DNA of 64,000 bases, from assembly GCA_018822435.1 (NCBI GenBank), contig JAHJKD010000049.1:6511-70510 (forward strand), given 5' to 3'. Source of the stretch: Patescibacteria group bacterium (GTDB lineage Bacteria > Patescibacteriota > Patescibacteriia > UBA9570 > JAHJKD01). The stretch's first letter is position 1. Each line of letters begins with the position of its first letter. The notes beneath the pieces are model-generated. The model searched no databases. It saw only the letters and a list, made by a program, of their open reading frames with translations, and had not been told where the DNA came from. The position numbers were made by a program, and so were the translations under genes. Positions 3,489-56,374 of this stretch are shown piece after piece.

Positions 3489-3499
3489 ATAGGTTTTTT

Positions 3500-4288
3500 T
3501 TACTTTGATTCTAAATTTTTAATCTCTTCTTTAAGTTCAATAATCTTCTTTTCCCGGCCCACCATGAGTTTGTTCATCTTATCGGATTGTTCTTTTTTGG
3601 CTTCCAACTCTTGCATTACAATTTCGCGCTGCTTCGCCTCTTTCTTTAACTCTATATTGGCTTTCTCTAAATCAGAAGTTGCATGACGAATATCTCCGGC
3701 CTGGCTTTCAATAAGCCTGGACCGGGCTTCTTGGCCCCGCGCATAAATAAGAACCACCAAAGATATAATGGCCATGCTTATTACAGTAAGCCAGGTTTCA
3801 TATGGTATATACGGCATATCAATGACTCGTATTGACTGAAGTATGGCTGCGGTAATCATAAAAGCGAATAATGCAAGGGTCCAATAAACGCCTTTTCTAT
3901 AACCCATTAATAAGAAAATTGCCGGGGGATATAAATAAATCCACAAGTTTCCCGTAGCAAAAAATCCGCCGGTCCCAAAATTATGAATAGACATTGCAGT
4001 AATCACAAAAGCTCCAATTTGAAAAGAAATCTCCATTTTTTTTGTAACCCGTAATATTATTAAGGCAGTCAGTAAAAGTATTATAAATGTAATTTCTAAG
4101 AAAGCTGGGTAATAATCTTTTATTTGCAGGTTTACAATGACATAATATGTGAAAATAATAATACCGAGAAAAGCGACGATATGAAAAAACCGAATACGGG
4201 AATAATTAATATCCGTACGTTTGAGCTCTATGCCAGATTGTAATATATTATCAATCCATTTCATGTTAATCATTATAACAAAAAACAA
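3500..4288 (-). CDS. Membrane sensor protein (5-6 TM) with C-terminal coiled coil ending in the G-R-E motif (KLMVGREKKIIELKEEI); no kinase domain
   Basis: TM helices plus Lys/Glu coiled coil; C-terminal motif shared with ORFs 20822-22120 and 22185-23591. Confidence 0.55.
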   Translation of the reverse strand: MFFVIMINMKWIDNILQSGIELKRTDINYSRIRFFHIVAFLGIIIFTYYVIVNLQIKDYYPAFLEITFIILLLTALIILRVTKKMEISFQIGAFVITAMSIHNFGTGGFFATGNLWIYLYPPAIFLLMGYRKGVYWTLALFAFMITAAILQSIRVIDMPYIPYETWLTVISMAIISLVVLIYARGQEARSRLIESQAGDIRHATSDLEKANIELKKEAKQREIVMQELEAKKEQSDKMNKLMVGREKKIIELKEEIKNLESK

Positions 4289-4329
4289 GGCACTTGTATA
4301 AGCGCCCTGTTTTTATTTACACTGTTTAA

Positions 4330-4791
4330 TTATTTCATAAAACCTTTGCCCATGCCTTTGCCCATGCCGGGTCCGTGGCCCATGCCCATGCCGTCAGGCA
4401 GTCCCAGTTCCTCGCGGATTTCCTGGGCGCCATCGAAATCGCCTTCTTGCATAAGTTTATGCATTTCAGCGAAGCGGTCAAAATTGCCTTCATTCACATA
4501 ATCCGTGATTTGAGGGCGGGAATCGATGATCTCTTTCCATTTGGCGTAATCGCCATCAGTCAGAGCGTTTTCCATCTCATCCTTTTGCGCCTGCATTTCT
4601 TCGCGATGCTGGCCCATTTCGGCCTGTACTTCCTGCTTTTGCTCGTCAGTAAGCTTGTCCCATACTGACGAGATGCCAGGGCCGGCCGCTTTGGTGGCGG
4701 CTGTGGCCGTCATCAGGCCGACAACGCCGACCGCGGCGACCGCGGCGACTAAGGAAAATGCGGTCAGGCTTTTTTTAACCTTTTGCTTCAT
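4330..4791 (-). CDS. Periplasmic CpxP/Spy-like (LTxxQ) protein with Gly/Met-rich tail
   Basis: Signal peptide; LTDEQKQ repeat motif; MGMGHGPGMGKGMGKG tail. Confidence 0.45.
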   Translation of the reverse strand: MKQKVKKSLTAFSLVAAVAAVGVVGLMTATAATKAAGPGISSVWDKLTDEQKQEVQAEMGQHREEMQAQKDEMENALTDGDYAKWKEIIDSRPQITDYVNEGNFDRFAEMHKLMQEGDFDGAQEIREELGLPDGMGMGHGPGMGKGMGKGFMK

Positions 4792-4832
4792 AAATAAATT
4801 ATTTAATTATTAAGATGACTTGGCCAGTCACT

Positions 4833-5612
4833 TTAATAATACGAGGGTTGATATTCTTTTATTTCAATATTTAATTTTTTACCTCTTGGATTAGGTTGTT
4901 CAGGATGGAAAGGTTTGTTCTTTCCTTTATCCCAAGGCCTGATGCCAAAGGCTTCTATCTCGTCTTCATCAATCCTTTCGCCAATAACCCTTATTTTTCC
5001 GCCTTGTAATAATTCTAATTCAGGTGGAACCATTGTTTCTCTAGAAAACATTACTTCCCACTCATCTCCGTTCCAATCAATTAAAATCAGGCTATCAGAC
5101 GATACGCTACCGATAATACCGGCAATTGTGCCGGCGTCAGGCTGCATCCAGATCATATGCGGGACAGGGACAACACGATGGTAGCCAGGCAAATGCTGCT
5201 CTAATTTATTCTCAATATATTGTGTCAGGCCAGTATAATAAAATAAAGCCGCCAATAATATTGTGCCAATCAAGATGACTATAACAATAAAATGCCATTT
5301 AATTTTATAGCCTTGCTTAGTTTTTCTGAATTCAACAAATGCCAGGATGGCCAGAGCCAGAGATAATATCAGCCAGAAATAAGGCAAAGCCCTCAGCATA
5401 TTGAGTACCCGTCCCGGCATAGCCATAAATAAACGAAAATCCTGCTGAACGGTAATTTCCCAACTTAGAGCAATAGCTAAAGCAATTATTGGAATACCAA
5501 TTATAAGAAGAGACCATAATAAAACTTCGCTAAAAGTATACCGCCATTTTGGCCTAGGCTTAATGTCGTTTTTCTTGATTTGTTCGTTGATCTTGTCTGA
5601 TATATTGGTCAT
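4833..5612 (-). CDS. Membrane protein translationally coupled to the ECF sigma factor (putative anti-sigma/regulator)
   Basis: 4-nt overlap with sigma gene; 4 TM helices + extracytoplasmic domain. Confidence 0.4.
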   Translation of the reverse strand: MTNISDKINEQIKKNDIKPRPKWRYTFSEVLLWSLLIIGIPIIALAIALSWEITVQQDFRLFMAMPGRVLNMLRALPYFWLILSLALAILAFVEFRKTKQGYKIKWHFIVIVILIGTILLAALFYYTGLTQYIENKLEQHLPGYHRVVPVPHMIWMQPDAGTIAGIIGSVSSDSLILIDWNGDEWEVMFSRETMVPPELELLQGGKIRVIGERIDEDEIEAFGIRPWDKGKNKPFHPEQPNPRGKKLNIEIKEYQPSYY

Positions 5613-8426: not shown

Positions 8427-9458
8427 ATGCTAAGCCAAAAAATTGTTGAAAAAATCCGGGTGGACGGACTGACTATTTCCACATCTCTTTTAGTCCACGC
8501 GGCTAAAAAAAACCGTCTGATAGTAAAACTGTTGCCAGAAAAAGCCCTGTCCATTTCTAATGATTCAGGACGAGAGTTTTTTTTCAAAGAAACCATGTTT
8601 CCGTGCAATGATTCGGTCGCTGCCCGTCTCTCTGACAATAAATATTTTGTCCGCCAGTTATTGCAAGCCGAAAACGTGGCTGTTCCTAAAACAAAAATTC
8701 TGGATAACGCAGCGGCCTGGGAAAAAACTTTAAAAAGCCGGCACCTCAGTTTTCCCCTTGTCGTCAAGCCCCTTAATGCGGCCCATGGCCATGGCATCAC
8801 AGTAAAAATTATGCGTAAATCTGTATTGCGAGAAGCAGTCAAAAAAGCTTTCAAATTAACCCGAGAAGTCAACCGTAAAAAAAGAATACTAGTGGAAGAG
8901 TATTTTGAAGGCCATGACCTGAGATTTTTAACAGTCGGCAATAAAGTAATATCTGTGGTGGAAAGGAAACCAGCTTATGTAGTCGGCAACGGAGAAGATA
9001 ATATCAGAAAACTAATTAAAAATTATAATCAGGTGTGGCGTTCGCGCATATCACAATATGACATGCCTCTCTGCCCAATATTAATTGACAGTGAAGTTAC
9101 TCGTCGCCTTTCTCTTCAGAACCTGAAAATCGATTCCTTGCTGAAAAAAGGTCAGGTTGCTCATCTTAGATTTAATGCCAATGTCAGCACGGGCGGGCGC
9201 ACTTTTGATGTTACAGACGAGGTCTCACCGGCTTTGAAAAAACTGGCCCTGAAGTGCATGGATATAACAAAATTACAGGTGGCCGGCGTGGACATGCTTT
9301 GCAAGGATATAAAATCTTCAGATACGACTTACAATAATCTCTGCATCCTGGAGGTGAATGACGAACCAGGCCTGGACATCCATTATTTTCCGTTCCAGGG
9401 AAAATCAAGGGACATCGGCACGGCCATACTAAAACATATATTTAAGGTGAATAGCTAA
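8427..9458 (+). CDS. ATP-grasp ligase (RimK/cyanophycin synthetase N-terminal-like)
   Basis: FPLVVKPLNAAHGHGITV ATP-grasp core; E..N Mg site near C-terminus. Confidence 0.5.
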   Translation: MLSQKIVEKIRVDGLTISTSLLVHAAKKNRLIVKLLPEKALSISNDSGREFFFKETMFPCNDSVAARLSDNKYFVRQLLQAENVAVPKTKILDNAAAWEKTLKSRHLSFPLVVKPLNAAHGHGITVKIMRKSVLREAVKKAFKLTREVNRKKRILVEEYFEGHDLRFLTVGNKVISVVERKPAYVVGNGEDNIRKLIKNYNQVWRSRISQYDMPLCPILIDSEVTRRLSLQNLKIDSLLKKGQVAHLRFNANVSTGGRTFDVTDEVSPALKKLALKCMDITKLQVAGVDMLCKDIKSSDTTYNNLCILEVNDEPGLDIHYFPFQGKSRDIGTAILKHIFKVNS

Positions 9459-10317
9459 TTTGGAAATCACGCCAGCTTAGGTCATTACCTTCTATAAGGC
9501 TAAATTTATAAACCATGCCATTTACTAAAACTATGTATTCTTCTTCGGGGGTGAAATATATATCGGCTTCGGATGGAAGAAGTTTCGTGAACCACGGCAC
9601 AGCCGTTACTTTTTCACCCTGAATCTCAAATTCATTTGCTTCCTCGCATTGAATTAAATAATCAGACACAGAATCGCCAGAATGAAAAAGCTTCATACTA
9701 TAAGCTGATAGTTCTTCAGAGAAAATAATTTCGAAATATCTAACAACATCTTTTTTCAAATAAACTTTTAGGTTACAGCGCAACAATTCTTTTTCATCAT
9801 AACTGCTGGGATCATCAATCGGTTCAAAAATTGTCCCCTCTTCGACAAACAGAGTTTTCTCTAAAAATGGAATATTAGGTATCGGCTGTTTGCCATATAA
9901 AATCATGCCATAAGGACTGGCGTAAGATTTGTAAACATTCACAATACCGCCTTTTTCAGACACCTTCTGAGAATAAACTAATTCTTGGCCCATTGGTTCT
10001 AAAAATTCGTACGAACCTAAACTGGCATAGGGAGTGGACAGAGTAAGAAAAGCAAACAAGATAGCGACCAGAGCGGGAACCTGAACGATAATACCGGTAA
10101 TCTCGACCCACCTTTTTTTTAGTTTCATACGAATCAACATGTAAATTCCGAATATGGAAAAAATTCCGGCGATGAAGTAGAAATAAAAATCAAAAGCATA
10201 TCCGCTAAATGAATAAGGGGTAAAAAGCAGGATGAAAATTATAACGTTTAAAATAAAGGAGATGGCCAGGTATGTTCCTTCCAGAGCATGATTATTGTTT
10301 TTTTTCTTTTTGGCCAT
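9442..10317 (-). CDS. Hypothetical integral membrane protein
   Basis: 4 N-terminal TM helices, no recognisable motif. Confidence 0.45.
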   Translation of the reverse strand: MAKKKKNNNHALEGTYLAISFILNVIIFILLFTPYSFSGYAFDFYFYFIAGIFSIFGIYMLIRMKLKKRWVEITGIIVQVPALVAILFAFLTLSTPYASLGSYEFLEPMGQELVYSQKVSEKGGIVNVYKSYASPYGMILYGKQPIPNIPFLEKTLFVEEGTIFEPIDDPSSYDEKELLRCNLKVYLKKDVVRYFEIIFSEELSAYSMKLFHSGDSVSDYLIQCEEANEFEIQGEKVTAVPWFTKLLPSEADIYFTPEEEYIVLVNGMVYKFSLIEGNDLSWRDFQISYSP

Positions 10318-10328
10318 ATGTTTTTTTA

Positions 10329-10862
10329 TTAATTAAATGTGCCTTCAAGCACTTTTGTTTCCATTTGGCCGTCCTGGCCGCTTTTTTCTGTTTCCTGAGA
10401 AATGATAACAGTCTGGTATTCATCCATATCCTGGTCGTTATTATATTCCAGCATAAAAGCAGAACCTGATTTTTCTATTTTCCCCACAGACATATGGTCG
10501 CCATCACTTTTTTGGATCCAAGCTTCATAAAAATAGCCGACTGGCGGATCAAGCAATTCAGCATCAATATTTAAAACATAATTATTTTCAAAATAACGGC
10601 TCGCCTTCCCAGAACCTTCAAAACCCTGGACTCCGCTTAGATCAGCGGTCTGGACAAGGGCAGCTGCTTCTTCTTGAGTTTTGGTAGGCTCTTTAAAGGA
10701 ATCACCAGACAGATCACCGTCTTCGCCTTGGACAACATTATTGTTAGGACTGGCATTGGTGGCCTGGTTATCAACTGGCTGGCTGCAAAGCGCGCCGACG
10801 AAAACCAAAACAGTAAGACTTGCAATAATGGGAAGGATTTTTTTCATATTTTTTATATTCAA
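10329..10862 (-). CDS. Secreted hypothetical protein (paralog 1)
   Basis: Signal peptide; C-terminal domain about 45% identical to next ORF. Confidence 0.5.
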   Translation of the reverse strand: MNIKNMKKILPIIASLTVLVFVGALCSQPVDNQATNASPNNNVVQGEDGDLSGDSFKEPTKTQEEAAALVQTADLSGVQGFEGSGKASRYFENNYVLNIDAELLDPPVGYFYEAWIQKSDGDHMSVGKIEKSGSAFMLEYNNDQDMDEYQTVIISQETEKSGQDGQMETKVLEGTFN

Positions 10863-10946
10863 TATTATATATTTATTTTACCAAAAATCGGCAAAAAAAA
10901 GAAGGCGAGCAATAAAGCCCGCCTTCTGCTATTTTATAGCCCTTCT

Positions 10947-12409: not shown

Positions 12410-13720
12410 TTACCAGTAGCGCAGCCAAAGATAAATATTACTGATAGCCACCGTAATGATCATAATTACAAGACCGGTTTTCATAAATTCCACAAAGGTA
12501 ATTTTATATCCGGCTTTTTCTGACATTCCGGCCACGACTAGATTTGCGCTCGCGCCAACTAAAGCGCCGTTGCCGCCAAGACAAGCTCCCAGAGCAAGCG
12601 ACCACCAAAGAGGATTAAGGTTGGAAAAAGTGCCTCCCATATCTTGAACTAGGGGTATCATAGTGGCGACAAAGGGTATATTGTCGACAAAGGCAGAGAT
12701 AAAGGCTGAGCCCCAGAGAATAACAGTGGAGGTAACGGCTAGGTTGCCTTGAGTAAATAGTAGTATTTGTTCTGCCAGCCAGGAAAGAACGCCGGTATTC
12801 TCTAGTCCGCCCACCAAAACGAACAGTCCGACGAAGAAGAATATAGTAGTCCATTCTACACCGTGCAAGGCTTTTTCTAAATTCTTATTTTCCAATAACA
12901 GTAGCAAACCAGCGCCGAAAATTGCAATCGTGGCTGCCTCTAATCCAAGGGCACCATGAAAAATAAAGCCGAGCATAACAAGCCCCAAGACAACTAATGA
13001 TTTTTTCAGTAGTTTCTTATCTTTAATGCTCTCTTTCTCTTTCAACTCCATAATGTTGTCCATATACTTCTGGTCCGTCTGGATCCGTTTATGATAACGC
13101 CAGTAAAAGAAAGGGATAATAGCCAGAAACATCAGCACAACTACAGGGCCGAGGTTTTTAACAAAATCCATAAAAGATAATCCGGCCGCGCTACCGATCA
13201 GGATATTGGGCGGATCGCCGATCAGGGTGGCCGTACCGCCGATGTTACTGGAAAAAACGACAACTAATAAAAATGGCTTGGGATTCACATGGAGGTTGTC
13301 ACAGATTACCATAGTTATCGGTACTAACAGAAGAACAGTCGTGACATTGTCCAGTAAGGCTGAAAATACAGCCGTAATGACAGCGAAGATGAGCATGATG
13401 GGCCAGGGGCGGCCTTTTACTTTTTTGGCTGCCTTAATCGCAATGTATTGAAATAAACCAGTATGCTTTACGATTTCTACGATGATCATCATTCCAATGA
13501 GCAGGCCGATGGTATTAAAATCAATGGCATTAATGGCTTGGTGCTGGTCGTAAAATTGTAAAAAAATACCGGCTATGATGATGATCGAAGCGCCGATAAG
13601 CGAAACGATGGTGCGATGGACCTTTTCCGATATGATCAGGCCGTAACTGGCCAGAAAAATTAAAAGAGCGGCGATTACAGCCGCAGTGGTCACTTCATTG
13701 TGGACGACTTCTTCTATCAT
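12410..13720 (-). CDS. ArsB/NhaD-superfamily permease (anion/Na+ transporter)
   Basis: About 11 TM helices, duplicated GDPPNI-type motif (LIGDPPNILIG). Confidence 0.7.
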   Translation of the reverse strand: MIEEVVHNEVTTAAVIAALLIFLASYGLIISEKVHRTIVSLIGASIIIIAGIFLQFYDQHQAINAIDFNTIGLLIGMMIIVEIVKHTGLFQYIAIKAAKKVKGRPWPIMLIFAVITAVFSALLDNVTTVLLLVPITMVICDNLHVNPKPFLLVVVFSSNIGGTATLIGDPPNILIGSAAGLSFMDFVKNLGPVVVLMFLAIIPFFYWRYHKRIQTDQKYMDNIMELKEKESIKDKKLLKKSLVVLGLVMLGFIFHGALGLEAATIAIFGAGLLLLLENKNLEKALHGVEWTTIFFFVGLFVLVGGLENTGVLSWLAEQILLFTQGNLAVTSTVILWGSAFISAFVDNIPFVATMIPLVQDMGGTFSNLNPLWWSLALGACLGGNGALVGASANLVVAGMSEKAGYKITFVEFMKTGLVIMIITVAISNIYLWLRYW

Positions 13721-14241
13721 ATTTCTTCTTGCTTACCTTTTTTTTCCATTTCCTCGGCTTCAGATAGGGCATCATGCAGAGCAATTTTAACAGAAGTCCG
13801 GGTAATGGCGCCAATTAGCTTGCCTTCTTTATCAACGACCGGCAGGACGCGGCGGGCGCCTTCCACGACATAAGTAGCGGCTTCGATCATGGCGTCATCA
13901 GGATCCAGAACATGGATATCTTTATACATGAAATCCTTAATCTTGTGGTGTTTAGCCTTTTTAGCATATTTGGCCAGCGTGCCTTTCACTCCAAACTGGG
14001 CCATTATTTCACTGCCCTTCAAATATTCAGGCACTATTTCTTTTATTAGGAGGTGCGAAGAAATAACGCCGATCGGCTTCTTGCTCTTATCGACCACGAC
14101 CAAGCTGTTCGTCTTTTTTTCAGACATTTTTTCCACGGCTTCTTCCAGGGTATTGTCCGGGCCAATGGTGTTGACCCAGGTTGTCATGTAATCTTTGACT
14201 TGCATAACATGAATTAAACACCTACTAATTAAATTCGTCAA
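13717..14241 (-). CDS. CBS-domain pair protein
   Basis: Two CBS motifs; 4-nt overlap with permease gene. Confidence 0.7.
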   Translation of the reverse strand: MTNLISRCLIHVMQVKDYMTTWVNTIGPDNTLEEAVEKMSEKKTNSLVVVDKSKKPIGVISSHLLIKEIVPEYLKGSEIMAQFGVKGTLAKYAKKAKHHKIKDFMYKDIHVLDPDDAMIEAATYVVEGARRVLPVVDKEGKLIGAITRTSVKIALHDALSEAEEMEKKGKQEEI

Positions 14242-14253
14242 TAAGAAAGCTGT

Positions 14254-15189
14254 TTATAATTTCTTCAGGGTGATCCTGGTTCCGTTAAAATCCAGACAGG
14301 CGCGCTTGTCCCATTTCCAAAAATTCAGAGGGGCCGGGACTTTGCCAGCGCCACCGGGCACGTCGATGACATAGAGCGGGCAGGCCAGGCCGGACAAGCG
14401 GCTCCGAAGCTTGGTCATGATCTCGGTTTCTTTCTTGAAATCAACGATAAAATGTTCAGCACCCGAGACGTAATCACAGCGAAAAATATAATAGGGCTTG
14501 ATGCCGATCTCGATCAGGCCGGAAAAAAGGTCGTAAAGAGTCTTGACGTTGTCATTGACTCCCTTTAGGAAGACGGATTGCGATAAAATCATGGTGACAT
14601 GAGGCTGGAGGCGGCGGATGGCCCGCACTGTGGCCGGATTGATCTCGGCCGGGTGCTCGAAGTGGACCATGAGATAGAGCGGCTGGCGTTTGACTGCATC
14701 CAGGGCGGCAAGCACTTTTTTGTCCGCCTGGCGCGGATCAGACACGGGCAAGCGCGTGCCCACGCGCAGGACCTTGATCTGGGGCAGGCGGGAAAAGCGG
14801 GTCAGGGCCTTTTTTAAAAGAATGGGAACGGTCAGAGGATCTCCCCCGGAAATTATCAGCTCTTTTATTTCCGGATGTTTCTTGAGGTAGGCCACGATAT
14901 TGTCCAGGTCCTTGTCTGTAATGACGCCTTTTTTGAGATCAGAAACCTTGCGCCGGCGCGTGCAAAAACGGCAATAGGCGGCGCAGTTCATGGTCAGGAG
15001 CACTAGGGCGCGGTTGCCGTATTTATGCACCAGGCCGCGGGTGGCGGTATGTTCCTCTTCCATAAGAGGATCAGCGGTGGTCATCTTTTCGTCCCAGCCC
15101 TCTTTTTTTGAAGGCACAAACTCGCGATGCACGGCCGGGCAGGTCTTGATGATGGTTTCTAAATGGGGTGATAAGCGCTTGCTGAGCAT
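14254..15189 (-). CDS. KamA-family radical SAM aminomutase (lysine 2,3-aminomutase / EpmB-like), GC-rich
   Basis: CAAYCRFCTRR (CxxxCxxC), ISGGDPL, VHFEHPAE, FLKGVNDN, GIKPYYIFRCDYVSGAEHF, IDVPGGAGKVP motifs. Confidence 0.8.
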   Translation of the reverse strand: MLSKRLSPHLETIIKTCPAVHREFVPSKKEGWDEKMTTADPLMEEEHTATRGLVHKYGNRALVLLTMNCAAYCRFCTRRRKVSDLKKGVITDKDLDNIVAYLKKHPEIKELIISGGDPLTVPILLKKALTRFSRLPQIKVLRVGTRLPVSDPRQADKKVLAALDAVKRQPLYLMVHFEHPAEINPATVRAIRRLQPHVTMILSQSVFLKGVNDNVKTLYDLFSGLIEIGIKPYYIFRCDYVSGAEHFIVDFKKETEIMTKLRSRLSGLACPLYVIDVPGGAGKVPAPLNFWKWDKRACLDFNGTRITLKKL

Positions 15190-15202
15190 TTTTTATTTAA
15201 AA

Positions 15203-16237
15203 TTATTTTTTTATGCAATTATATTTGATACCATAGCGGTGGCAGGCTGATTTCAGGATAGCGGCGATCATGCCGTCATAGGCCAGACCGGCCGCGCGGG
15301 CAGCGCGGGGAAAGCGCGAATTTTCACGCGGGTCTGGAATTATCCCGGGCGGGCAATTGATCTCAATCACATAGGGTGTGCTCTTCTTGAGCCGCAGGTC
15401 GATCCGCGCCCAGTCGGCCATTTCCAACGCCTGGAAAGTGTGGCGGCAGACCTGGCTGATCTTCTTGGCCAGGGCCGGGCTGATCTTGGCCGGGCAGACC
15501 AGGGGGTCGGCCTCGTGCTGGGGATCGTCATAGACCCATTTGGCCTCGTAGTGGTCGAATTTGGGCATGTGGGCAGGCAGAGCATCGAAAGTCACTTCTA
15601 TAATGGGCAGGACGCGAGGCGGCGTGCCCAGCAGGGCGACCGTGAACTCGCGACCCTCTATATATTCCTCGATAATGACGCTCTGGCCGTGCTGGCGGAT
15701 GATGTCATCCGCTACCCTGACCAGGTCGGCATGGTTGCCAACCAGATTGGCGCTGCCGATGCCCTTGCTCGAGCCTTCGCCGAGGGGCTTGACGATGGCC
15801 GGAAAAAAATCAACATTATCGGGCCGTATTTCCGCAGCGGCCCTAGCCGTGAACCAGCGCGGCGTCGGGATCTTGTGGGCCAGGAGGACTTCCTTGGCCT
15901 TAGCCTTGTGTAGGCCGAGGGCGTAGCCCAGCGGACTGGGGCCGGTATAGGGGATCTCGAGCATTTCCAGCATGGCCGGGATCTGGGCCTCGCGATCCAG
16001 GCCGTGCATGCCTTCGGCTATATTGAATACCAGGTCGAGCTGCTGCCTCAGGTCATGAAGCTTCTTATAGGCAGAATGATCGGCTTCGATGCAAAAAACA
16101 GTATGGCCGAGCCCTTGCAAGGCGTCGTAAATGCCGGCAATGGTGGCTGGTTCGTCAAATTCCGCTTCCATAATATATTGAGGGTCGTCCATGTCCGGTT
16201 TGACGTGGCGGACGTTGTAGGTGAAGCCGATATTCAT
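15203..16237 (-). CDS. D-alanine--D-alanine ligase-family ATP-grasp enzyme, GC-rich (ATG at 16237; track uses upstream TTG at 16258)
   Basis: Ddl-like N-domain, AIVKPLGEGSSKGI, IEEYIEGREFTV, RIDLRL...VIEINCPPG motifs. Confidence 0.75.
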   Translation of the reverse strand: MNIGFTYNVRHVKPDMDDPQYIMEAEFDEPATIAGIYDALQGLGHTVFCIEADHSAYKKLHDLRQQLDLVFNIAEGMHGLDREAQIPAMLEMLEIPYTGPSPLGYALGLHKAKAKEVLLAHKIPTPRWFTARAAAEIRPDNVDFFPAIVKPLGEGSSKGIGSANLVGNHADLVRVADDIIRQHGQSVIIEEYIEGREFTVALLGTPPRVLPIIEVTFDALPAHMPKFDHYEAKWVYDDPQHEADPLVCPAKISPALAKKISQVCRHTFQALEMADWARIDLRLKKSTPYVIEINCPPGIIPDPRENSRFPRAARAAGLAYDGMIAAILKSACHRYGIKYNCIKK

Positions 16238-16399
16238 AAAATTAAAAAAACCCAGCAAAGGGGCTCACTTTTAATGGGTCTTAAATTGAGGTTTTTAGCT
16301 TTAGCGGCTGTTGTCAGGCAGTCCGGAGGATGATCATCGTCATCCTTTAATATTTCTGTTTCCATTTTTTTATTCAAATATATTCTACTCCGGTTTTTT

Positions 16400-16850
16400 C
16401 CGGTGTCAATATCTGCCGGAAACAGGCTGTGTATAAATTAGAATAATACCGGTCGCTGCCTGATGGGATAGAACCACCAGACAGCGACCAGGATCCTGAT
16501 GCGGGGGAGAGAGGCCATTGGTCTGAAAGAAATCCATGGCTAGTTTCCCCTGCTCTGTACAGCCTCCGAGGCCATCCACCGCTTTCGCTGGGTTGGGCTC
16601 ATCCGGTTGTACTGGGCTCGTTGGTTACAGGAGAGCCTCAGATAGAACCTACGGAAAGGGTCAATCTGTGGACAGTTGGGATCATCTGTCCCGGAAGGTA
16701 CGGTTCGTTCATTTGGCTTGCTGACCTTGGTCATGAAACACCTCCTCATGGCGGCCGGTTGAACGGGCCTTTTTATCTTACCCCCATGGCAAAACAAAAA
16801 GCTTCTTACCCCGATAATGCAGAATAAGAAGCTTTTTGTCTTCTTGCCTT
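16400..16850 (+). ncRNA. Candidate structured noncoding RNA in a GC-rich island (family not identified)
   Basis: No credible ORF; extended -10 TGtTATAAA at 16430-16438; nested GC-rich hairpins such as GGUCGCUG..CAGCGACC; ends at a 13-bp hairpin. Confidence 0.25.
16805..16850. terminator. Bidirectional terminator-like perfect 13-bp hairpin (AAAAAGCTTCTTA ...16-nt loop... TAAGAAGCTTTTT)
   Basis: Seen directly; U-runs on both strands. Confidence 0.6.
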
Positions 16851-17032
16851 TCGATAAACTCAAGGCCATATCTTCCTCCAAGGGGGGCAGGACTTACCAC
16901 CCGGCTTATCCGGGTTGGCGAGCAGTCAACGGGCCTGATCCCTCGTGCTTCTCTTGATATTTTTGAATTGCAATGAACTATAAATATTCTAACAAATATT
17001 TCTTACCTTCGCAACGATTTTCTTGGGGATAA

Positions 17033-17278: not shown

Positions 17279-17296
17279 ATTTTTTAAATTAATTTG

Positions 17297-17369
17297 TCGG
17301 ACTGGCGGGACTCGAACCCACGACCTCACGCACCCGAGGCGTGCGCGCTACCAACTGCGCTACAGTCCG
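17297..17369 (-). tRNA. tRNA-Pro (anticodon CGG)
   Basis: Manual fold: acceptor CGGACUG/CAGUCCG, anticodon stem CACGC/GCGUG, loop CUCGGGU, T-loop UUCGAGU; no encoded CCA. Confidence 0.85.
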
Positions 17370-26591: not shown

Positions 26592-29144
26592 TTATATAAA
26601 ACTCTCAGGACCGGTCAAGTCAGCCCCTCCGCCCAAGCGATCAAGCTGCCCTCTTTCGGCAATTTCCGCTTCCACAATAGCGCGATCACGGCCGAATTTA
26701 AGCCGGGAAAGCTGTTTGAGATTTTCTGCAATTTTGAGGTCACCAGGCGGCGGCATGATGGTTTTCATGTTAAATGGCCTTGAAGCAGTATTTTCAATCA
26801 GTAATTTGATATTAGCAGTGAATTTCTCCACATTAATAACGTCATTTTCATTAAATATAGGCGCGAATTCTTTAGCCAGGGTTTCCGCGTCTTCTACGCC
26901 AATACGGAATGAAATAATAGTACCGGCATTACCAAAGACAGCGTCTCTGATTTTAGTATCGTCCTTATTAACAAGCTGACTGACGTACTGATGGGCCAGG
27001 ATAAGGTCAAGCTTGTATTTTCTGGCTTCTGATAAAATCGTGGCAATCGAGTCAGTCGTATAGTTTTGGAACTCATCAATATATAAATAAAAATCCTTGC
27101 GCTTTTCTTTGGCCATGGTGGCCCGGCTCATGGCCGCCATCTGTAATTTGGAAACCATGATCAAACCAAGCAAAGAACTATTTACTTCCCCGACTGTGCC
27201 CTTACAAAGATTGACCAGGCAAATCTTCTGATTATCCATAATATCTTTAAAATTGAAACCAGATTTGTCCTGGCCGACGATATTGCGCATCATGTCATTA
27301 GTAAGGAAACGGCCGATCTTGGAAATAACGTAAGAGAGCATATCCGCGGCTTGCTGGCCAGACTGCGACTGCTCGTATTCCTGCTGCCAGAAATTCTTAA
27401 CAATTGGATTAGTAACATTCTTAACTTTATCCGCCCGGAATTTTTCATCAGTGAACATGCGCGGCACTTCAATAATGGTGGCGCCAGTGTCCTTGTCTTC
27501 CATTAATGCCAGCATGGCATTTCTCATGTAATGCTCGAACATAGGGCCGATCATTTCCTCGCCGAACAGCTTATAAAAAATGGCGATCATTTCCTGGACG
27601 GCAAAATCCTTTTGTTCATTAGAATCATATTCCATCATATTCAGGCCGACTGGCCTTTCAATGTCTGAAGGATTGAAGATAACAACGTCATCGGCACGTT
27701 CTTTAGGAATATGAGGCAAAACATCCTCGATCAAGTCGCCATGCGGATCAATAATGCCAACGCCCTCCCCATTCTGAATATCCTGAATAGCCATATTAGA
27801 CAGAAGAACAGATTTACCAGAACCAGAACGACCGATTACATAAACATGGCGCTGCCTATCTGGCCGTAAAATCCGCACTTGAGTAGTTTTTCCACGATAA
27901 TCAACTTCTCCCAGAATAACGCCCTCTTTGGGCATATTAAATGGCGGCGCTGCTTTCTTAGCCATGAGCCAACGAATATTCGGAGTTTCCGTAGTCGGCA
28001 GAGGCATATGATAAAGCGAGGTCAATTCTTTTGCATTCAGGATGTAATCGCCTTTTTCATGAAAATTTCGGTAAATAAAGTCATTGATCAATTCTTTGTC
28101 AGCGGAGGGATTATTGGCTTCAAAAGAATTGCCATATTCATGGCCGGAATACTGGGCAAATGCATTGACGATGTTATTGCATTTAAATTCCGCTATTTCT
28201 TTTGTGCCGGCTGAGGCAATAACCCGGATATTTGTTTCAAAACCGGCATGGGAGACTTTGTCTTCCAGAGATTTGACAGTTTCTTCTTCCATGGGGGACA
28301 GGCGGTATTCGCGGTCTGTTTTAATATCCAAACCCTGATCATATTTACGGGCACGATTCAGGAAAACGCGACGAAAATATAACCAGAATTTTGTGATGCC
28401 GCTGCCGACAACCTCTTTTTTAGCCTGAGAATATTTTTTTCCCTGTTGCATGACTGTGGCAATCCGGGCTGGCGCGTATTGCCACCTTTTCGGAGCAGAA
28501 CGAATAACATACTGGATAGCTGCCCCTTCGCCTTTCTCAAACTTGGAAAGGGCATTGGTCAGAGCGCTGAGAGGATCAGACTCCAGCTTGTCATAAGTAT
28601 TAATAGGGAAAAATTCTTCATTTGATAGTTTTAAACGCGAGGCAACCACAGCGCCCTGAGGATTGAAAATATTAAAATCATCAACTTCTTCAATAACTGA
28701 ATCTTCATACTGGGCCTGAATCTGTTGTTCCAATAATTTTTTTAAATAGGCCGGGCAAGTAGCAAAAAAACTTATCATTTGCTCTTCATCAGCCACAATC
28801 TCAAAAGTGAGATGGTCGTTGCGTCCGTACCAGAATGCTTCCCAGCCTCTTTGCGGCTTTAATCCGCCGAGCGTCGTATATATTGTTTCGGCGACGGAAA
28901 TAGACTGATACACGCTTTCACGCCGGAAAGAAGGATTGTCAGATTGCTGTTCCTTGGGTTCGTTCTTGGGGACTTTGATCAGGATCATCTTGCGGTGAAA
29001 AGCCTCTGGTTTTTTGACTAGATTTCTAGTAACAGTTCTAAGTAAAAAAACAACTCCCGTAAATATTAAAAACAAAACAATCACTCCTAAGAGGAGGAGG
29101 AATATTGGTGATTCAATGATTTGAAAGATGAAATTTATGTTCAT
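26592..29144 (-). CDS. Membrane-anchored FtsK/HerA-superfamily P-loop ATPase (VirB4/VirD4/TraG-like)
   Basis: N-terminal TM; Walker A VIGRSGSGKS; IIDPHGD; Walker B YIDEFQN; ARKYKLDLILAHQ. Confidence 0.6.
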   Translation of the reverse strand: MNINFIFQIIESPIFLLLLGVIVLFLIFTGVVFLLRTVTRNLVKKPEAFHRKMILIKVPKNEPKEQQSDNPSFRRESVYQSISVAETIYTTLGGLKPQRGWEAFWYGRNDHLTFEIVADEEQMISFFATCPAYLKKLLEQQIQAQYEDSVIEEVDDFNIFNPQGAVVASRLKLSNEEFFPINTYDKLESDPLSALTNALSKFEKGEGAAIQYVIRSAPKRWQYAPARIATVMQQGKKYSQAKKEVVGSGITKFWLYFRRVFLNRARKYDQGLDIKTDREYRLSPMEEETVKSLEDKVSHAGFETNIRVIASAGTKEIAEFKCNNIVNAFAQYSGHEYGNSFEANNPSADKELINDFIYRNFHEKGDYILNAKELTSLYHMPLPTTETPNIRWLMAKKAAPPFNMPKEGVILGEVDYRGKTTQVRILRPDRQRHVYVIGRSGSGKSVLLSNMAIQDIQNGEGVGIIDPHGDLIEDVLPHIPKERADDVVIFNPSDIERPVGLNMMEYDSNEQKDFAVQEMIAIFYKLFGEEMIGPMFEHYMRNAMLALMEDKDTGATIIEVPRMFTDEKFRADKVKNVTNPIVKNFWQQEYEQSQSGQQAADMLSYVISKIGRFLTNDMMRNIVGQDKSGFNFKDIMDNQKICLVNLCKGTVGEVNSSLLGLIMVSKLQMAAMSRATMAKEKRKDFYLYIDEFQNYTTDSIATILSEARKYKLDLILAHQYVSQLVNKDDTKIRDAVFGNAGTIISFRIGVEDAETLAKEFAPIFNENDVINVEKFTANIKLLIENTASRPFNMKTIMPPPGDLKIAENLKQLSRLKFGRDRAIVEAEIAERGQLDRLGGGADLTGPESFI

Positions 29145-36368: not shown

Positions 36369-36914
36369 TTATTTATCTATTGTATCATCTTTTGGCCCGC
36401 CGGTCAGGTCGTCGAGAAAATTGCCGAGGAGTTCGCCGTCGGTGAAGTCGCGGGCCATGTCCGCGGCCGCGTCCATGGCGCCGCCCACGGCCTTGCCCTG
36501 GGCTATGCCCATGGTCCTTTCCATGGTCTCTTCCACGGCCCTTTCCACCGGCATTTTCGGGGATTTCATGCCCAGGATGCCGGCAAATATCATCTGCAGG
36601 CCGGTGAAGTCAAAATCCGTGTCTTGGCTGGCCATGTTTACGGCCTGGCCATTGGCGAAATTCATGAAATCGTCCCAGTTCTTTTCTTTACCAAAACCAC
36701 CCTGTTCTTCAAAGCTGGCGCCGGTCTTATCATAATGCTTCTTTTTTTCCGGACTGCCCAGGACCTGATAAGCTTCGTTTATTTCCTTGAACTTAGCTTC
36801 GTCTCCCCCTTTGTCAGGATGATAGACTTTGGCCAATTTAATAAAAGCCTGTTTAATTTCTTCGGGGCTTGATTCGCGGGTTACGTTGAGGGTTTGGTAG
36901 TAGTCTTGGGGCAT
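36369..36914 (-). CDS. Chimeric J-domain protein: DnaJ-like N-terminal 90 aa (AT-rich) fused to a unique Ala/Met/Asp-rich GC-rich C-terminal tail
   Basis: About 60% identity to DnaJ residues 1-90 incl. HPD and NWDDFMN; GC content jumps after about codon 70. Confidence 0.7.
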
Positions 36915-42940: not shown

Positions 42941-43444
42941 TTAAAAAATGGAGACAGCCCCCATTGTAAATAATGTTACTATTATCCCTGCTATTATAAC
43001 CCCTAAAAAGATCAAAGGCAAGGCATTTCTATACTTAATTCCGAACAGCCAGGCAGCTAAAGCTCCTGTATAAGCACCAGTCATGGGCAGGGGAATGGCG
43101 ACAAAAAATATAAGGGCAAAATCACCCCAGGATTTATGTTTGTCGTAAAATCTTTTTCTGGTTCTTTCAAATAACCAATTAAAAAATCTATCAAATATTT
43201 TTATTTTTTTAAGCAGTTTATAAACCGGATCCATTAGATATAAAATAAAAAATACCGGGATCATGTTACCAATAACGGCCGCCACAAAAACTGTTTTCCA
43301 GTCCAGCCCGAAAACACTAATTCCGATCGGGATGGCAGCGCGCAGCTCTCCGACTGGGATCATGGCAATAATAGCCGTGCCAAGCCAGGCCGGAATTCCA
43401 GAGACAAAATTAACTAAAATTTCATCCATATTATTTATTCCCAA
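42941..43444 (-). CDS. Small membrane protein (putative small multidrug export protein-like)
   Basis: 4 TM helices; weak family resemblance. Confidence 0.4.
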   Translation of the reverse strand: MGINNMDEILVNFVSGIPAWLGTAIIAMIPVGELRAAIPIGISVFGLDWKTVFVAAVIGNMIPVFFILYLMDPVYKLLKKIKIFDRFFNWLFERTRKRFYDKHKSWGDFALIFFVAIPLPMTGAYTGALAAWLFGIKYRNALPLIFLGVIIAGIIVTLFTMGAVSIF

Positions 43445-44385
43445 TTATAATTATTATAAACCCACTCTACGATATCCTGAGTTTCATAAAATCTCTCATT
43501 ATCATCTTCCACTCCTAAAACAGCCACGATTATTTCATGGCCCCATTCATCTGTATTTAAAGAGAGAAGGCAGAATCCCGCTTCATCTGTGTAACCTGTC
43601 TTGCCGCCGATCATAAATGCATCCCCCCAGGTAATAAGCTTATTTGTATTTTTAATGGCGATCTCTTCATCTGAATCAGTTCTTTTCATGCGGTGATAGT
43701 CCATGCCTAATGGCTCACGGATAACGTCCCGGGCAAAAGCGGCCTTAGCCAGCTTGACCAGATCCTGGGCCGTGGATTGATTGCCCTCTTCCAGGCCGGT
43801 TGGCTCCACAAATGTCGAATCATTCATGCCCAGCATCCGCGCCTTCTCATTCATGAGCTGTTTGTAAATATCGTCGGAAATTTCCGTGGAATGGGCCAAT
43901 GCCAAAGCGGCATTATTGCGGGAACCAACTAAAGCGGTTCTGAGCAAATCATAAGTAGAAAATTGCTCCCCCTCTCCCGCGGGCAGGCGGGCGCCAATCA
44001 GCCAGTTTTCGTCATTGGATATAGAATGCATATGGTTCCAACCCGGATTATGATCCAGAAAAACTAAAACATTCATCAGCTTGGTGATAGAAGCGATGGG
44101 CATGGGCTCTTCCGCGTTTTTCTGCCATAGGATCTTGCCGGAATTTTTATCCACAGCAATAGCCGCCCGAGAACCAATGTCTTCTGGTCCATTGCTTTCT
44201 GTGATTTTTTTTGGAGGTGGGATAGCCAGGGGCAACCGGGGGGAAGGTTCGATTTCCAAGACGGTATCATTGACCTGGTCATAAGTAGGCGGAATATAAA
44301 AAGTCTCTTCAACAAGAACGGCGGGCAGGCCTAAGCCTGTCAGCTGTGCGATTAAAGCTGCTCCGACAATAAAATTATTCAGCAT
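43435..44385 (-). CDS. D-alanyl-D-alanine carboxypeptidase (PBP5/6-type)
   Basis: SITK, SRNN, KTGYT active-site motifs. Confidence 0.8.
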   Translation of the reverse strand: MLNNFIVGAALIAQLTGLGLPAVLVEETFYIPPTYDQVNDTVLEIEPSPRLPLAIPPPKKITESNGPEDIGSRAAIAVDKNSGKILWQKNAEEPMPIASITKLMNVLVFLDHNPGWNHMHSISNDENWLIGARLPAGEGEQFSTYDLLRTALVGSRNNAALALAHSTEISDDIYKQLMNEKARMLGMNDSTFVEPTGLEEGNQSTAQDLVKLAKAAFARDVIREPLGMDYHRMKRTDSDEEIAIKNTNKLITWGDAFMIGGKTGYTDEAGFCLLSLNTDEWGHEIIVAVLGVEDDNERFYETQDIVEWVYNNYNWE

Positions 44386-54913: not shown

Positions 54914-56374
54914 TTATTTAATAATTTCATAATTATCAACGCGAAGGCGGCCGAGCACTTCTTTACCTTCTTCAAAATCCATCCATCGAGGCTGGAAGTC
55001 GTAATCTATCTTAACGGGCTTGAATTGTATCTTCTTGACTTGATCGCCTTCCCACCAGACCTTAATGGCAGCCCCTAAAGTTGTTTCATGGGACCAGTCC
55101 TGATCAAAAATCAGATTGCCTAAAGAATAGAAAATATACTTACCATTATATTCTTCCATTCTTTGGACAACATGAGGATGATGGCCGATAACCATGTCCG
55201 CGCCGTGATCGATAGCGGTGTGAGCAAAGCCGGACTGGGAAGATGAGATGTTTTCCGTGTATTCAGAGCCGTTGTGCATACTGACTATAATGACATCAGC
55301 CTGGTCTTTAACGGAATTAATATCAGAAATTAATTTATTAGTGTCTAAATTGCGGTCATAAGCATAGCAGAGAAAGGCGAATTTAGTACCATTTACTTCC
55401 TCAATAGCCCAGGTTTCCAGGCAATAGCCGATGCCATTATTCACGAGATGCTCTTTGGTAAAGGCGATGCCGTCCTGGCCGGCGTTGCCGATGTGGTTGT
55501 TGGCCAGGGAGGCCATATCAATTCCGGCCAGATTCAGGCCGTCCATGAAGCGCGGATCCACGCGGAAAGACATGGCGTTGTCATCAACATAATAAGGCCC
55601 AGACCGGGCAAAGGGAGCTTCTAAATTAATAAAAGCAAGATCGTTTTGTTTTAGCTCATCAGCAATGCGTACAAACGGTTCCGAATAATTGCCCCGGGCT
55701 TCGGAGGCGCGAGCCACATAGCGAGACAGCATAACATCTCCTCCGAATATTGTCGTGACCTGAGGCGGAGGGGCGGAAGGGGTGTTAAAAGAAAGAGCTT
55801 TGGACCAGCGGGATTTGTTCCTTTTATTATATATAGCTTGAATTTTTACAAAATATTTTGTGTCTGGATTTATTCCAGTAAAAGTGAATTCCTCTTTCTT
55901 GATTTTTTTCTTGGCAACTAAATTTCTATCCTGATCTAAAAGACGGATATAAAATTTTACGCCCTGGTCTCTTTTTAAATCCCAGGCCAGGCTGACAGAA
56001 TCATTAGTCAGGCCGGTAAAAGAAATGTCACGGACTTTTTTAGGAACTGTACGAAACCTTTGGCCGTCTGACCATTCTCCTGTCTCTTCACTAACATCTT
56101 TTACTCTAAAAAAATATGACTGATTAGATTTAATATGATTTTTCTTTACCAGCTTCTCACTAACATCTGAATAAAAAGTTTTTAATCTCTCGCCGACTTT
56201 AGTAAATAATTGAATTTTAAAATAAGTGTCATCGGCGCCGTCCCAACTTAAAAGGACCCTTCTTGGGCCCTTGTCTTCGGAACTTAAATTTTGAGGACGA
56301 GTGACATTGAAAGCAATGATTGGAATAGTAATAACAACAATGGCAACGATAATTACAGGTATAGTCTTTTTCAT
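54914..56374 (-). CDS. Membrane-anchored CapA/PgsA-family metallophosphatase with two N-terminal fibronectin-III-like domains
   Basis: GGDVMLSR, GNHE-like NNHIGN, MHNGSEY motifs; N-terminal TM. Confidence 0.6.
   Translation of the reverse strand: MKKTIPVIIVAIVVITIPIIAFNVTRPQNLSSEDKGPRRVLLSWDGADDTYFKIQLFTKVGERLKTFYSDVSEKLVKKNHIKSNQSYFFRVKDVSEETGEWSDGQRFRTVPKKVRDISFTGLTNDSVSLAWDLKRDQGVKFYIRLLDQDRNLVAKKKIKKEEFTFTGINPDTKYFVKIQAIYNKRNKSRWSKALSFNTPSAPPPQVTTIFGGDVMLSRYVARASEARGNYSEPFVRIADELKQNDLAFINLEAPFARSGPYYVDDNAMSFRVDPRFMDGLNLAGIDMASLANNHIGNAGQDGIAFTKEHLVNNGIGYCLETWAIEEVNGTKFAFLCYAYDRNLDTNKLISDINSVKDQADVIIVSMHNGSEYTENISSSQSGFAHTAIDHGADMVIGHHPHVVQRMEEYNGKYIFYSLGNLIFDQDWSHETTLGAAIKVWWEGDQVKKIQFKPVKIDYDFQPRWMDFEEGKEVLGRLRVDNYEIIK

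Follow-up and report, generated by a model that had tools for sequence, protein, structure and literature searches.

What does a bacterium make with a radical S-adenosylmethionine (SAM) aminomutase whose gene lies directly behind that of a ligase resembling a cell-wall enzyme? The question is raised by a stretch of 64,000 nt (the window) from a metagenome-assembled genome (MAG) of Patescibacteria, the candidate phyla radiation (CPR). Here, the genes for an ATP-grasp protein related to D-alanine-D-alanine ligase (Ddl) and for a KamA-like 2,3-aminomutase are separated by a spacer of 13 nt (15190-15202), with all operon elements on the minus strand (Table 1). Both proteins are identical to Patescibacteria MAG entries (MBU0732452.1 for KamA and MBU0732451.1 for the ligase), and the NCBI record names the ligase D-alanine--D-alanine ligase. 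Open reading frame (ORF) and profile searches confirmed the coordinates and family calls of an earlier note on this DNA. The 13-nt gap described there was also found, whereas the placement of KamA as the upstream gene has to be reversed, the ligase being transcribed first. The order of transcription is tRNA-Pro, SAM-I riboswitch, small ORF A, 18-bp hairpin, promoter, upstream ORF (uORF), ATP-grasp ligase, KamA, CBS protein and permease. The reading that we favor, tentatively and somewhat short of calling it probable, is that of a two-enzyme beta-lysine module typical of CPR, in which the ligase product would be a beta-lysine amide, KamA would serve as EpmB as well, and a leader peptide would exert control.

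The ligase and KamA recur together within and beyond CPR

To determine how often the two genes are paired, we surveyed about 160 loci: 80 genome loci fetched with KamA and 80 metagenome loci, mostly non-CPR, fetched with the ligase. An orthologue of the window ligase (type B) is located directly upstream of KamA in 29 of the 80 KamA-fetched loci, and in about 20 loci of this set a second paralogue (A) lies upstream of B. KamA was present within 4 kb of the ligase in 39 of the 80 ligase-fetched loci, including 19 of the 31 with full flanks. The surroundings of the pair vary between CPR classes. Thus, the pairing pointed out by the earlier note recurs as a true module, beyond what chance adjacency would explain.

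Outside CPR, the ligase family occurs in a cassette of Ddl-like 1, Ddl-like 2, a RimI-like GNAT (~160 aa) and a KamA of 350-390 aa, often downstream of recG (L124, L141, L156, L172 and about 30 further metagenome loci). The KamA of the cassette resembles lysine 2,3-aminomutase (LAM; TIGR03820 score 459-473, cutoff 525) and forms a separate clade with 99% bootstrap support. CPR ligase A groups with cassette ligase 2 and CPR ligase B with cassette ligase 1, the window ligase forming a clade with Ddl-like 1 at 81% bootstrap. The link of the ligase family to two distinct KamA lineages argues strongly for a functional coupling.

In eight cassettes lacking KamA (L118, L120, L153, L136, L127, L126, L131 and L119), the ligases follow a deoxyhypusine-synthase homologue (SpeY), a pyruvoyl arginine decarboxylase (ADC) and agmatinase. 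A related methyltransferase is found in four of these loci (L118, L119, L127 and L153) and a GNAT in three. The KamA and SpeY arrangements were mutually exclusive in the sample. Clusters of the SpeY-ADC-SpeB type make homospermidine (2026 paper, PMC13625781), and a link to hypusine and EF-P (elongation factor P) drawn from the deoxyhypusine-synthase-like neighbors was downgraded for this reason. Because the ligase pairs either with KamA and GNAT or with homospermidine genes, the common denominator of its partners is a supplier of a cationic amine. On a Bradyrhizobium plasmid (L180, 7546-12311), the gene order is KamA-gamma-glutamyltransferase-7TM_transglut-ATP-grasp, and a Thioflavicoccus plasmid (L185, 557-6038) has diaminobutyrate transaminase-SbnA-SbnB-like-ATP-grasp beside KamA, together with diaminobutyrate/diaminopropionate genes. 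In the literature searched, no paper links an aminomutase of the KamA type to an ATP-grasp or Ddl partner, and none describes the Ddl1-Ddl2-GNAT-KamA cassette.

The ligase has the Ddl fold and belongs to a separate family

The window ligase matched the Pfam domain Dala_Dala_lig_C with 101 bits and remained below the cutoff of every Ddl model in NCBIfam (best score 172.3, cutoff 243). A sequence search of the PDB returned Ddl structures only. All three domains of the AlphaFold model (pLDDT 90.7) can be superposed on Ddl, and the top 50 structure matches in the PDB are all Ddl or D-Ala-D-Lac ligases, with TMq values of 0.62-0.75 (0.72-0.75 for the best). Equivalents of K97, K144, E180, E187, K215, R255, D257, E270 and N272, which function in ATP and Mg binding and phosphoryl transfer, are retained. 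The window ligase thus shares with the Ddl and Van ligases the three-domain ATP-grasp fold together with all residues for ATP and Mg binding and phosphoryl transfer.

In contrast, other residues depart from Ddl. H63 is replaced by Glu and Y216 by Trp, both invariant in the ligase family, L282 is replaced by Arg, and an equivalent of E15 is absent, while S150 is kept. The N-terminal GGxSxE motif of Ddl is replaced in the family by YNVRH...EAEFD. All four canonical Ddl proteins used for comparison (E. coli DdlB, S. meliloti Ddl beside ftsQ, Pantoea DdlA and Macrococcus Ddl) carry E15, H63, S150 and Y216. The KamA-linked ligases are split from these four with 100% bootstrap, at an identity of 25-29%; the best 120 relatives of the window ligase are 48-66% identical to it, and its conservation across CPR is 55-65%. 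The family also differs from Ddl in its genomic setting, with no member beside mur or fts genes among the loci read. As judged from its sequence, the window ligase is a member of a separate KamA-linked family ('Ddl-like B/Ddl1') and not a cell-wall Ddl. Grouping with genuine cell-wall Ddl, named in the earlier note as an outcome that would speak against its proposal, was not observed (100% bootstrap, H63E, Y216W). Note that routine annotation of this ligase as Ddl could wrongly credit genomes with a cell-wall Ddl.

In several CPR lineages a protein of ~450-500 aa is encoded directly upstream of the ligase (L024 66-1571, L037 8618-9991, L059, L065, L105-L107 and L110). It has a PP-loop-like SFGKDS motif and weak similarity to MurL epimerase (42 bits). 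L037 also encodes 793-aa fusions of an L-amino-acid-ligase-type ATP-grasp domain with a Ddl-like domain. In the window, a RimK-like ATP-grasp gene (343 aa; 8427-9458, plus strand) is located 5 kb from the pair, and RimK-like genes are found near the pair in a Kuenenbacteria locus (L006) as well. In one CPR-like lineage (L113-L115, 5381-7430), the genes behind the ligase encode a PRC-MgtE_N-CBS protein and a SAM hydroxide adenosyltransferase (DUF62), making this the second instance in which the ligase has a CBS protein and a SAM-related function as neighbors.

A compact KamA clade lies on the EpmB side of the family

Only one model of the subfamily/equivalog set, the KamA family TIGR00238, was reached by the window KamA (211.5 bits, cutoff 199.2). 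The scores were below cutoff for LAM AblA/KamA (TIGR03820, 217.7 versus 525.4), EpmB (TIGR03821, 215.8 versus 369.3), glutamate 2,3-aminomutase (TIGR04368, 208.6 versus 650, with both substrate Asp residues retained in the window enzyme) and arginine 2,3-aminomutase BlsG (TIGR04468, 209.1 versus 600), and likewise far below threshold for the AblA-like-2 model. Because the KamA of a kamA-epmA-efp operon (L085) also fails the EpmB model (212.7), this model does not cover the compact clade to which both enzymes belong.

Alignment to the solved LAM structure 2A5H showed that C69/C73/C76, R78, D239, D276 and K283 of the window enzyme correspond to C125/C129/C132, R134, D293, D330 and K337 of LAM. 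The CxxxCxxC cysteines and the pyridoxal phosphate (PLP) lysine K283 show no substitution among 21 relatives. D276 does not vary, and 27 of the 28 compact-clade members have Asp at the position of D239. Where the window enzyme has the Asp corresponding to D330, Xenorhabdus BlsG has Thr, and glutamate aminomutase carries Lys/Asn in place of the two substrate-binding Asp residues. Since D293, D330 and K337 have their counterparts in the window enzyme and BlsG differs at D330, lysine is the likely substrate. Glutamate and arginine, considered alongside lysine in the earlier note, appear unlikely on the same residue evidence.

The window KamA lacks an N-terminal extension of 30-60 aa that is present in all other clades. 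Bacillus AblA has 62 N-terminal and 99 C-terminal residues in addition, and E. coli EpmB an N-terminal extension of ~50 aa. Among more than 1200 KamA relatives, the best 120 share 59-75% identity with the window enzyme, have lengths of about 285-360 aa (306-321 in most) and belong to Magasanik-, Kuenen- and Portnoybacteria, among other groups. In a neighbor-joining tree with 200 bootstraps, the compact KamA of CPR and Armatimonadota group with L085 and L090 at 100%, and with L085 at 81%. A 90% split separates the compact group, E. coli EpmB, AblA-like-2, Desulfuromonadaceae EpmB and Leptospira KamA from Bacillus AblA and BlsG. The phylogeny, suggested in the earlier note as a means of assigning the enzyme to one of the known clades, thus places it on the EpmB side (90%), yet in a distinct compact clade (100%) that does not reach the EpmB model. 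Compact KamA is probably the CPR counterpart of EpmB, judging from this placement, and the clade appears to fill the place of the missing CPR EpmB, which escapes detection by the curated model.

The relation to EF-P beta-lysylation extends to the gene neighborhoods of clade-mates. The KamA of the kamA-epmA-efp operon, on a Patescibacteria contig (L085), has the same compact length and model-score profile as the window enzyme. Deep in the compact clade, L027 and L032 have the order epmA-DUF218-CxxCxxCC-DdlA-DdlB-kamA, with epmA four genes upstream of DdlA-DdlB-kamA; this epmA passes TIGR00462 (300.8, cutoff 286.9). EpmA is common in CPR, often in the order rpsF-ssb-rpsR-epmA-efp, and lies beside efp in L098 and L099. 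The EF-P of these CPR epmA-efp pairs bears a loop lysine (PGKG). Neither efp nor epmA is present within the 64-kb window, which the earlier note took as an argument against a role in EF-P modification. This absence says little because clade-mates pair with epmA and efp and EpmA is common in CPR, and the argument is countered by a 100% clade that includes the kamA-epmA-efp operon and by the 90% placement on the EpmB side. The window enzyme resembles EpmB in its radical-SAM/PLP family, lysine-type residues and position in the tree, and CPR possess their own EpmA and Lys-tipped EF-P; it differs from the EpmB system in that its gene shares an operon with an ATP-grasp ligase and not with epmA or efp. 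Thus, the window KamA probably also supplies beta-lysine for EpmA-dependent EF-P modification.

In 18 loci, most of them labeled Armatimonadota (L061-L087), the compact KamA is preceded by a conserved protein of 450-500 aa (for example, L079 8548-9960, with KamA at 10004-10930), and in most of these a glutaredoxin gene follows KamA. The conserved protein had no relative in Pfam, NCBIfam or the PDB and no profile relation to the Ddl-like ligase; the idea that this ~470-aa partner is another ATP-grasp enzyme found no support in these searches or with hhalign. In a record of Leptospira interrogans chromosome II (L092, 1397-7531), a 365-aa KamA-family gene and efp are 2.8 kb apart, and three hypotheticals come after the KamA gene, with no epmA annotated in the stretch shown. 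This KamA may be another EF-P-related variant.

A polyproline leader peptide precedes the operon

The uORF in front of the ligase contains the motif DDDDHPPDC. Corresponding motifs in the leaders of other loci are EQEPPDC (L089), ESEPPSGC (L014), EEDDPPSGC (L017), GDEPPPSDC (L029), SDEPPPI (L054) and EEEPDPLPPPYSYC (L013, where KamA is the first gene of the operon), and the L028 leader reads KEDPYPK. A uORF starting with ATG and containing an acidic-PP(P) motif was found in 7 of 12 free leaders versus 4 of 341 control upstream regions (Fisher 2e-9, for a pattern defined post hoc and with the window and L089 not independent of each other). In most loci with the motif, the end of the uORF lies within or shortly ahead of a hairpin with U-run that abuts the start codon. 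Analogues of the window's hairpin and U-run, often stronger, are present in L013, L014, L028, L054 and L089. We infer that the leader functions as a translation-dependent attenuator or coupling device.

Acidic or proline-containing leader peptides of the MgtL type offer a comparison (review PMC12856214). With MgtL, SecM and EF-P-dependent XPPX leaders, the window leader shares a short uORF in which acidic residues are followed by consecutive prolines, ahead of a terminator and the regulated gene. In contrast, it has no sequence homology to them, and the genes that it would regulate are those of a beta-lysine pathway. Ribosome stalling at XPPX is said to depend on EF-P, reportedly as described by Peil in 2013. 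The polyproline leader is a testable candidate for translation-stalling control of EF-P-related genes. An alternative reading of the uORF as the precursor of a ribosomally synthesized and post-translationally modified peptide is unlikely: only the acidic-PP motif is conserved, the remainder overlaps the terminator and start codon, and KamA keeps its free-amino-acid/PLP site.

Upstream of the promoter, the SAM-I riboswitch (RF00162) is a full-length match with 47.9 bits (gathering threshold 44.4), and its orthologue in the relative L003 scores 47.7 bits. As a regulator of the pair it was rejected, since its own terminator, a small ORF, an 18-bp hairpin and a promoter intervene before the genes, and since it is restricted to this lineage; a search ahead of the pair in other lineages gave no match. 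Lysine and Mg riboswitches, looked for in the leaders of the other lineages, were likewise not found. The 18-bp hairpin probably marks the end of the riboswitch-controlled transcript. In L003, the counterpart of small ORF A encodes 39 aa and has both the AGGAGGTG site and the F..FY and MSP.....W residues in common with it. By these sequence features, the lineage appears to encode a SAM-regulated small protein (small ORF A in the window; L003 6365-6685).

A proposed beta-lysine pathway and its alternatives

In the pathway that we propose, the compact KamA would convert L-lysine into beta-lysine by means of PLP and a 5'-deoxyadenosyl radical derived from [4Fe-4S]/SAM, as suggested by its residues and phylogeny. 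As the organism's presumed EpmB, it would also feed this product to EpmA for the modification of EF-P. The ligase, with its Ddl-type acyl-phosphate site, would form an amide bond involving beta-lysine, as suggested by linkage, fold and catalytic residues. It may activate the beta-lysine carboxylate and join it to an amine, or may couple another amino acid to a beta-lysine amino group. Either reaction would lead to a small, positively charged amide or dipeptide of beta-lysine. Through its stall-prone Pro-Pro-Asp motif, the acidic leader would be sensitive to EF-P activity and/or ribosome stability, the latter reflecting Mg2+ or polyamine status. ATP-grasp ligases that fix a nonstandard amine have precedents in the Enterococcus D-aspartate ligase with its racemase, Ngg of the N-acetylglutaminylglutamine amide (NAGGN) pathway and glutathionylspermidine synthetase. 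The window pair shares with these the logic of a supplier and an amide ligase, and GNAT partners occur in the wider ligase family as well. The ligase family differs from these precedents in its type of ATP-grasp enzyme and in the supplier, which is a radical-SAM aminomutase or the SpeY homospermidine genes.

Several observations weigh against this proposal. Roughly half of the KamA loci have no ligase next to the gene, and KamA is missing from 12 of the 31 fully flanked ligase loci; in L097 and L101, for example, DdlA-DdlB keep their usual place without it. If they act as EpmB and LAM do, the two KamA clades linked to the ligase would be expected to produce opposite enantiomers of beta-lysine, which is awkward for a single shared substrate. 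The acidic-PP motif is absent from 5 of the 12 free leaders and was defined post hoc. Furthermore, the window encodes a D-Ala-D-Ala carboxypeptidase (43435-44385, minus strand), and the organism should therefore make D-Ala-D-Ala peptidoglycan and need a Ddl; no other Ddl is encoded in the 64 kb.

This last point, along with the NCBI name, the Ddl fold and catalytic residues, and the envelope-related neighbors in some CPR loci (YkuD, DUF218 and the weakly MurL-like protein), would agree with a function in the cell wall. The ligase would then be the organism's Ddl, or a peptidoglycan side-chain or cross-bridge ligase using beta-lysine, in analogy to the racemase and D-aspartate ligase of Enterococcus. 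We consider this quite unlikely, given the lack of an E15 equivalent and the presence of E63 and the invariant W216, unlike in the four canonical Ddl, the 100% phylogenetic split, the failure to reach any Ddl equivalog or subfamily model, and the location of the non-CPR orthologues in KamA/GNAT or homospermidine cassettes, never beside mur or fts in the loci read. Quite improbable, too, is an absence of metabolic coupling, with KamA acting just as EpmB and the ligase an unrelated neighbor kept by inherited synteny. The adjacency recurs in distant CPR classes with different surroundings, outside CPR with a different KamA clade and on proteobacterial plasmids; the genes of the pair overlap or are separated by short gaps, and the leader is present regardless of which of them opens the operon (L013). 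Nevertheless, much of the Magasanikbacteria-type adjacency resides in one block (IleRS-DdlA-DdlB-KamA-NIF3-like-RuvA) in which DdlA-DdlB can remain without KamA, and KamA occurs alone in loci labeled Portnoybacteria and Saccharibacteria, as mere synteny would predict.

The ligase, with DdlA where present, could alternatively modify a protein, adding or extending a beta-lysyl chain on the loop lysine of EF-P or on another translation component, with the leader as a feedback sensor. Consistent with this, the window KamA falls in the EpmB-type clade, epmA shares a cluster with DdlA-DdlB-kamA in L027 and L032, and the leaders carry PPD, PPS or PPP motifs of the kind requiring EF-P. Moreover, the cassette GNAT resembles RimI, a protein acetyltransferase, and RimK is an ATP-grasp enzyme that modifies a ribosomal protein. 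Such a role is still unlikely, as efp was never adjacent to the ligase in the loci surveyed, EpmA, where present, already accounts for the ligation, and the Ddl fold is known for small-molecule substrates, to which the alternative partner of the ligase, the free-polyamine pathway (SpeY homospermidine), also points. The model of the earlier note, in which the pair makes an osmolytic beta-amino-acid dipeptide and, together with the CBS protein and permease, constitutes a salt-stress module, is very unlikely. The CBS/permease genes are linked to the pair in only one lineage (the window and L003-5/L089) of the loci surveyed, and the window operon contains no GNAT/AblB-type acetyltransferase, GNATs being found only in some relatives (L012 and L054) and in the non-CPR cassette. 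The permease belongs to a broad family (CitMHS/ArsB/NhaD) and reaches no specific model, the best NCBIfam match, MamN, being far below its cutoff at 234 bits. KamA is of the EpmB and not the AblA type, as indicated by the LAM model score and the tree, and the leader peptide is Pro-rich, with no known Rfam riboswitch in any operon leader. On the other side stand the same-strand arrangement of the genes with short gaps and no terminator, the conservation of the four-gene order in a relative, and the precedents of N-acetyl-beta-lysine (AblA/AblB) and of the dipeptide osmolyte NAGGN, made by a GNAT and an ATP-grasp enzyme. Compared to the AblA/AblB pathway of N-epsilon-acetyl-beta-lysine, the window KamA has the same expected chemistry (D293, D330 and K337 kept), and the non-CPR cassette even pairs a LAM-like KamA with a GNAT. 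In contrast, the partner in the window is an ATP-dependent ligase, implying an amide bond rather than acetylation.

Beyond the beta-lysine amide proposed above, the E63/W216 ligases might serve translation-linked cation chemistry more generally, yielding, with beta-lysine from the EpmB-type aminomutase, either an adduct on EF-P or another ribosomal component or a free, polyamine-like oligo-cation that stabilizes ribosomes, with the leader as a sensor tuning the operon to EF-P activity or ribosome stability. We regard this as doubtful; if true, it would amount to a new EF-P-related or polyamine-surrogate pathway in CPR and, in the form of the cassette, in many other bacteria. Retention of the pair across classes by the tiny CPR genomes, at 55-75% identity, argues for an important function, and the biochemistry of beta-lysine and polyamines would gain a new branch once the product of the ligase is found.

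The GC-rich pair is part of a conserved operon

The two genes of the pair have a GC content of 0.54 and 0.58, compared to 0.42 for the window. At third codon positions (GC3), the values are 0.67 and 0.72 versus a mean of 0.41 (sd 0.07) for the 44 other window ORFs, 3.7 and 4.4 sd higher. Thus, the GC-richness of both genes remarked on in the earlier note is real and beyond chance. However, its conclusion that they were inserted at the head of a CBS/permease operon does not hold. Because the relative L003-5/L089 has the identical ATP-grasp-KamA-CBS-permease order together with the leader, tRNA-Pro and riboswitch, and its pair has ordinary GC, the pair was not recently inserted ahead of the CBS and permease genes. 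The proteins of L089 are 61-81% identical to those of the window, with similar divergence of the pair (61-75% identity) and its flanks (63-81%; permease 81%). Synteny, normal GC and similar divergence together speak against horizontal insertion as a simple story. Across 81 loci, the GC content of KamA equals that of the locus, and the GC3 excess coincides exactly with the two genes and is specific to the window lineage. It may have arisen by allelic replacement from a GC-richer relative, and recombination with such relatives may have turned the genome into a mosaic. A 181-aa gene between DnaJ and DnaK (36369-36914) is also GC3-rich, more mildly (0.63).

Organization of the operon and its surroundings

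The features of the locus are listed in Table 1. The earlier note had also given a gap of 13 nt between KamA and the CBS gene. The CBS gene is indeed close and on the same strand, with no terminator detected in a scan of the junction, but the gap is 12 nt, and this only with TTG 14241 as the start codon. The in-frame ATG 14205 is the likelier start; it is preceded by AGGTG and results in a gap of ~48 nt, resembling the 50 nt in L003. The CBS and permease genes overlap by 4 nt (13717-13720). They are probably co-transcribed with the pair, as a lineage-specific addition.

Table 1. Features of the ligase-KamA locus and its upstream region, in the order of transcription.
Feature	Position	Strand	Basis or remark
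tRNA-Pro(CGG)	17296-17369	-	Conserved upstream neighbor of the riboswitch/leader region, same arrangement in L003; context only
SAM-I riboswitch	16793-16963 (aptamer 16865-16963; terminator hairpin and U-run ~16793-16848)	-	RF00162
Small ORF A, 64 aa	16540-16734	-	GGAGG ribosome-binding site, downstream of the SAM riboswitch; no Pfam match
18-bp hairpin	16449-16491	-	Scan; between small ORF A and promoter, comparable hairpin in L003
Sigma-70-like promoter, TTGACA-16-TAGAAT	16382-16409	-	Scan, 11/12 matches; position relative to leader conserved in L003/L089
Leader uORF, 43 codons	16234-16365	-	METEILKDDDDHPPDCLTTAAK..., acidic run then Pro-Pro-Asp; stop overlaps ligase ATG (ATGA)
Terminator-like hairpin and U-run	16248-16266	-	Sequence scan; inside the uORF 3' end, directly before ligase start
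ATP-grasp ligase	15203-16237 (ATG, 344 aa, the database protein length) or 15203-16258 (TTG, 351 aa)	-	ORF call
KamA-like aminomutase, 311 aa	14254-15189	-	ORF call, TIGR00238
CBS-pair protein, stand-alone	13717-14241 (probable start ATG 14205)	-	Pfam CBS 75 bits, two domains
CitMHS/ArsB-NhaD-superfamily permease	12410-13720	-	Pfam CitMHS 336 bits

A few kb upstream of tRNA-Pro, L003 carries a diversity-generating-retroelement pair (bAvd and reverse transcriptase, 3492-4907), where the window has histidine-kinase genes. Elsewhere, the window encodes a TraG/VirD4-type coupling protein (26592-29144) and a PGA_cap/fn3 protein (54914-56374), both on the minus strand.

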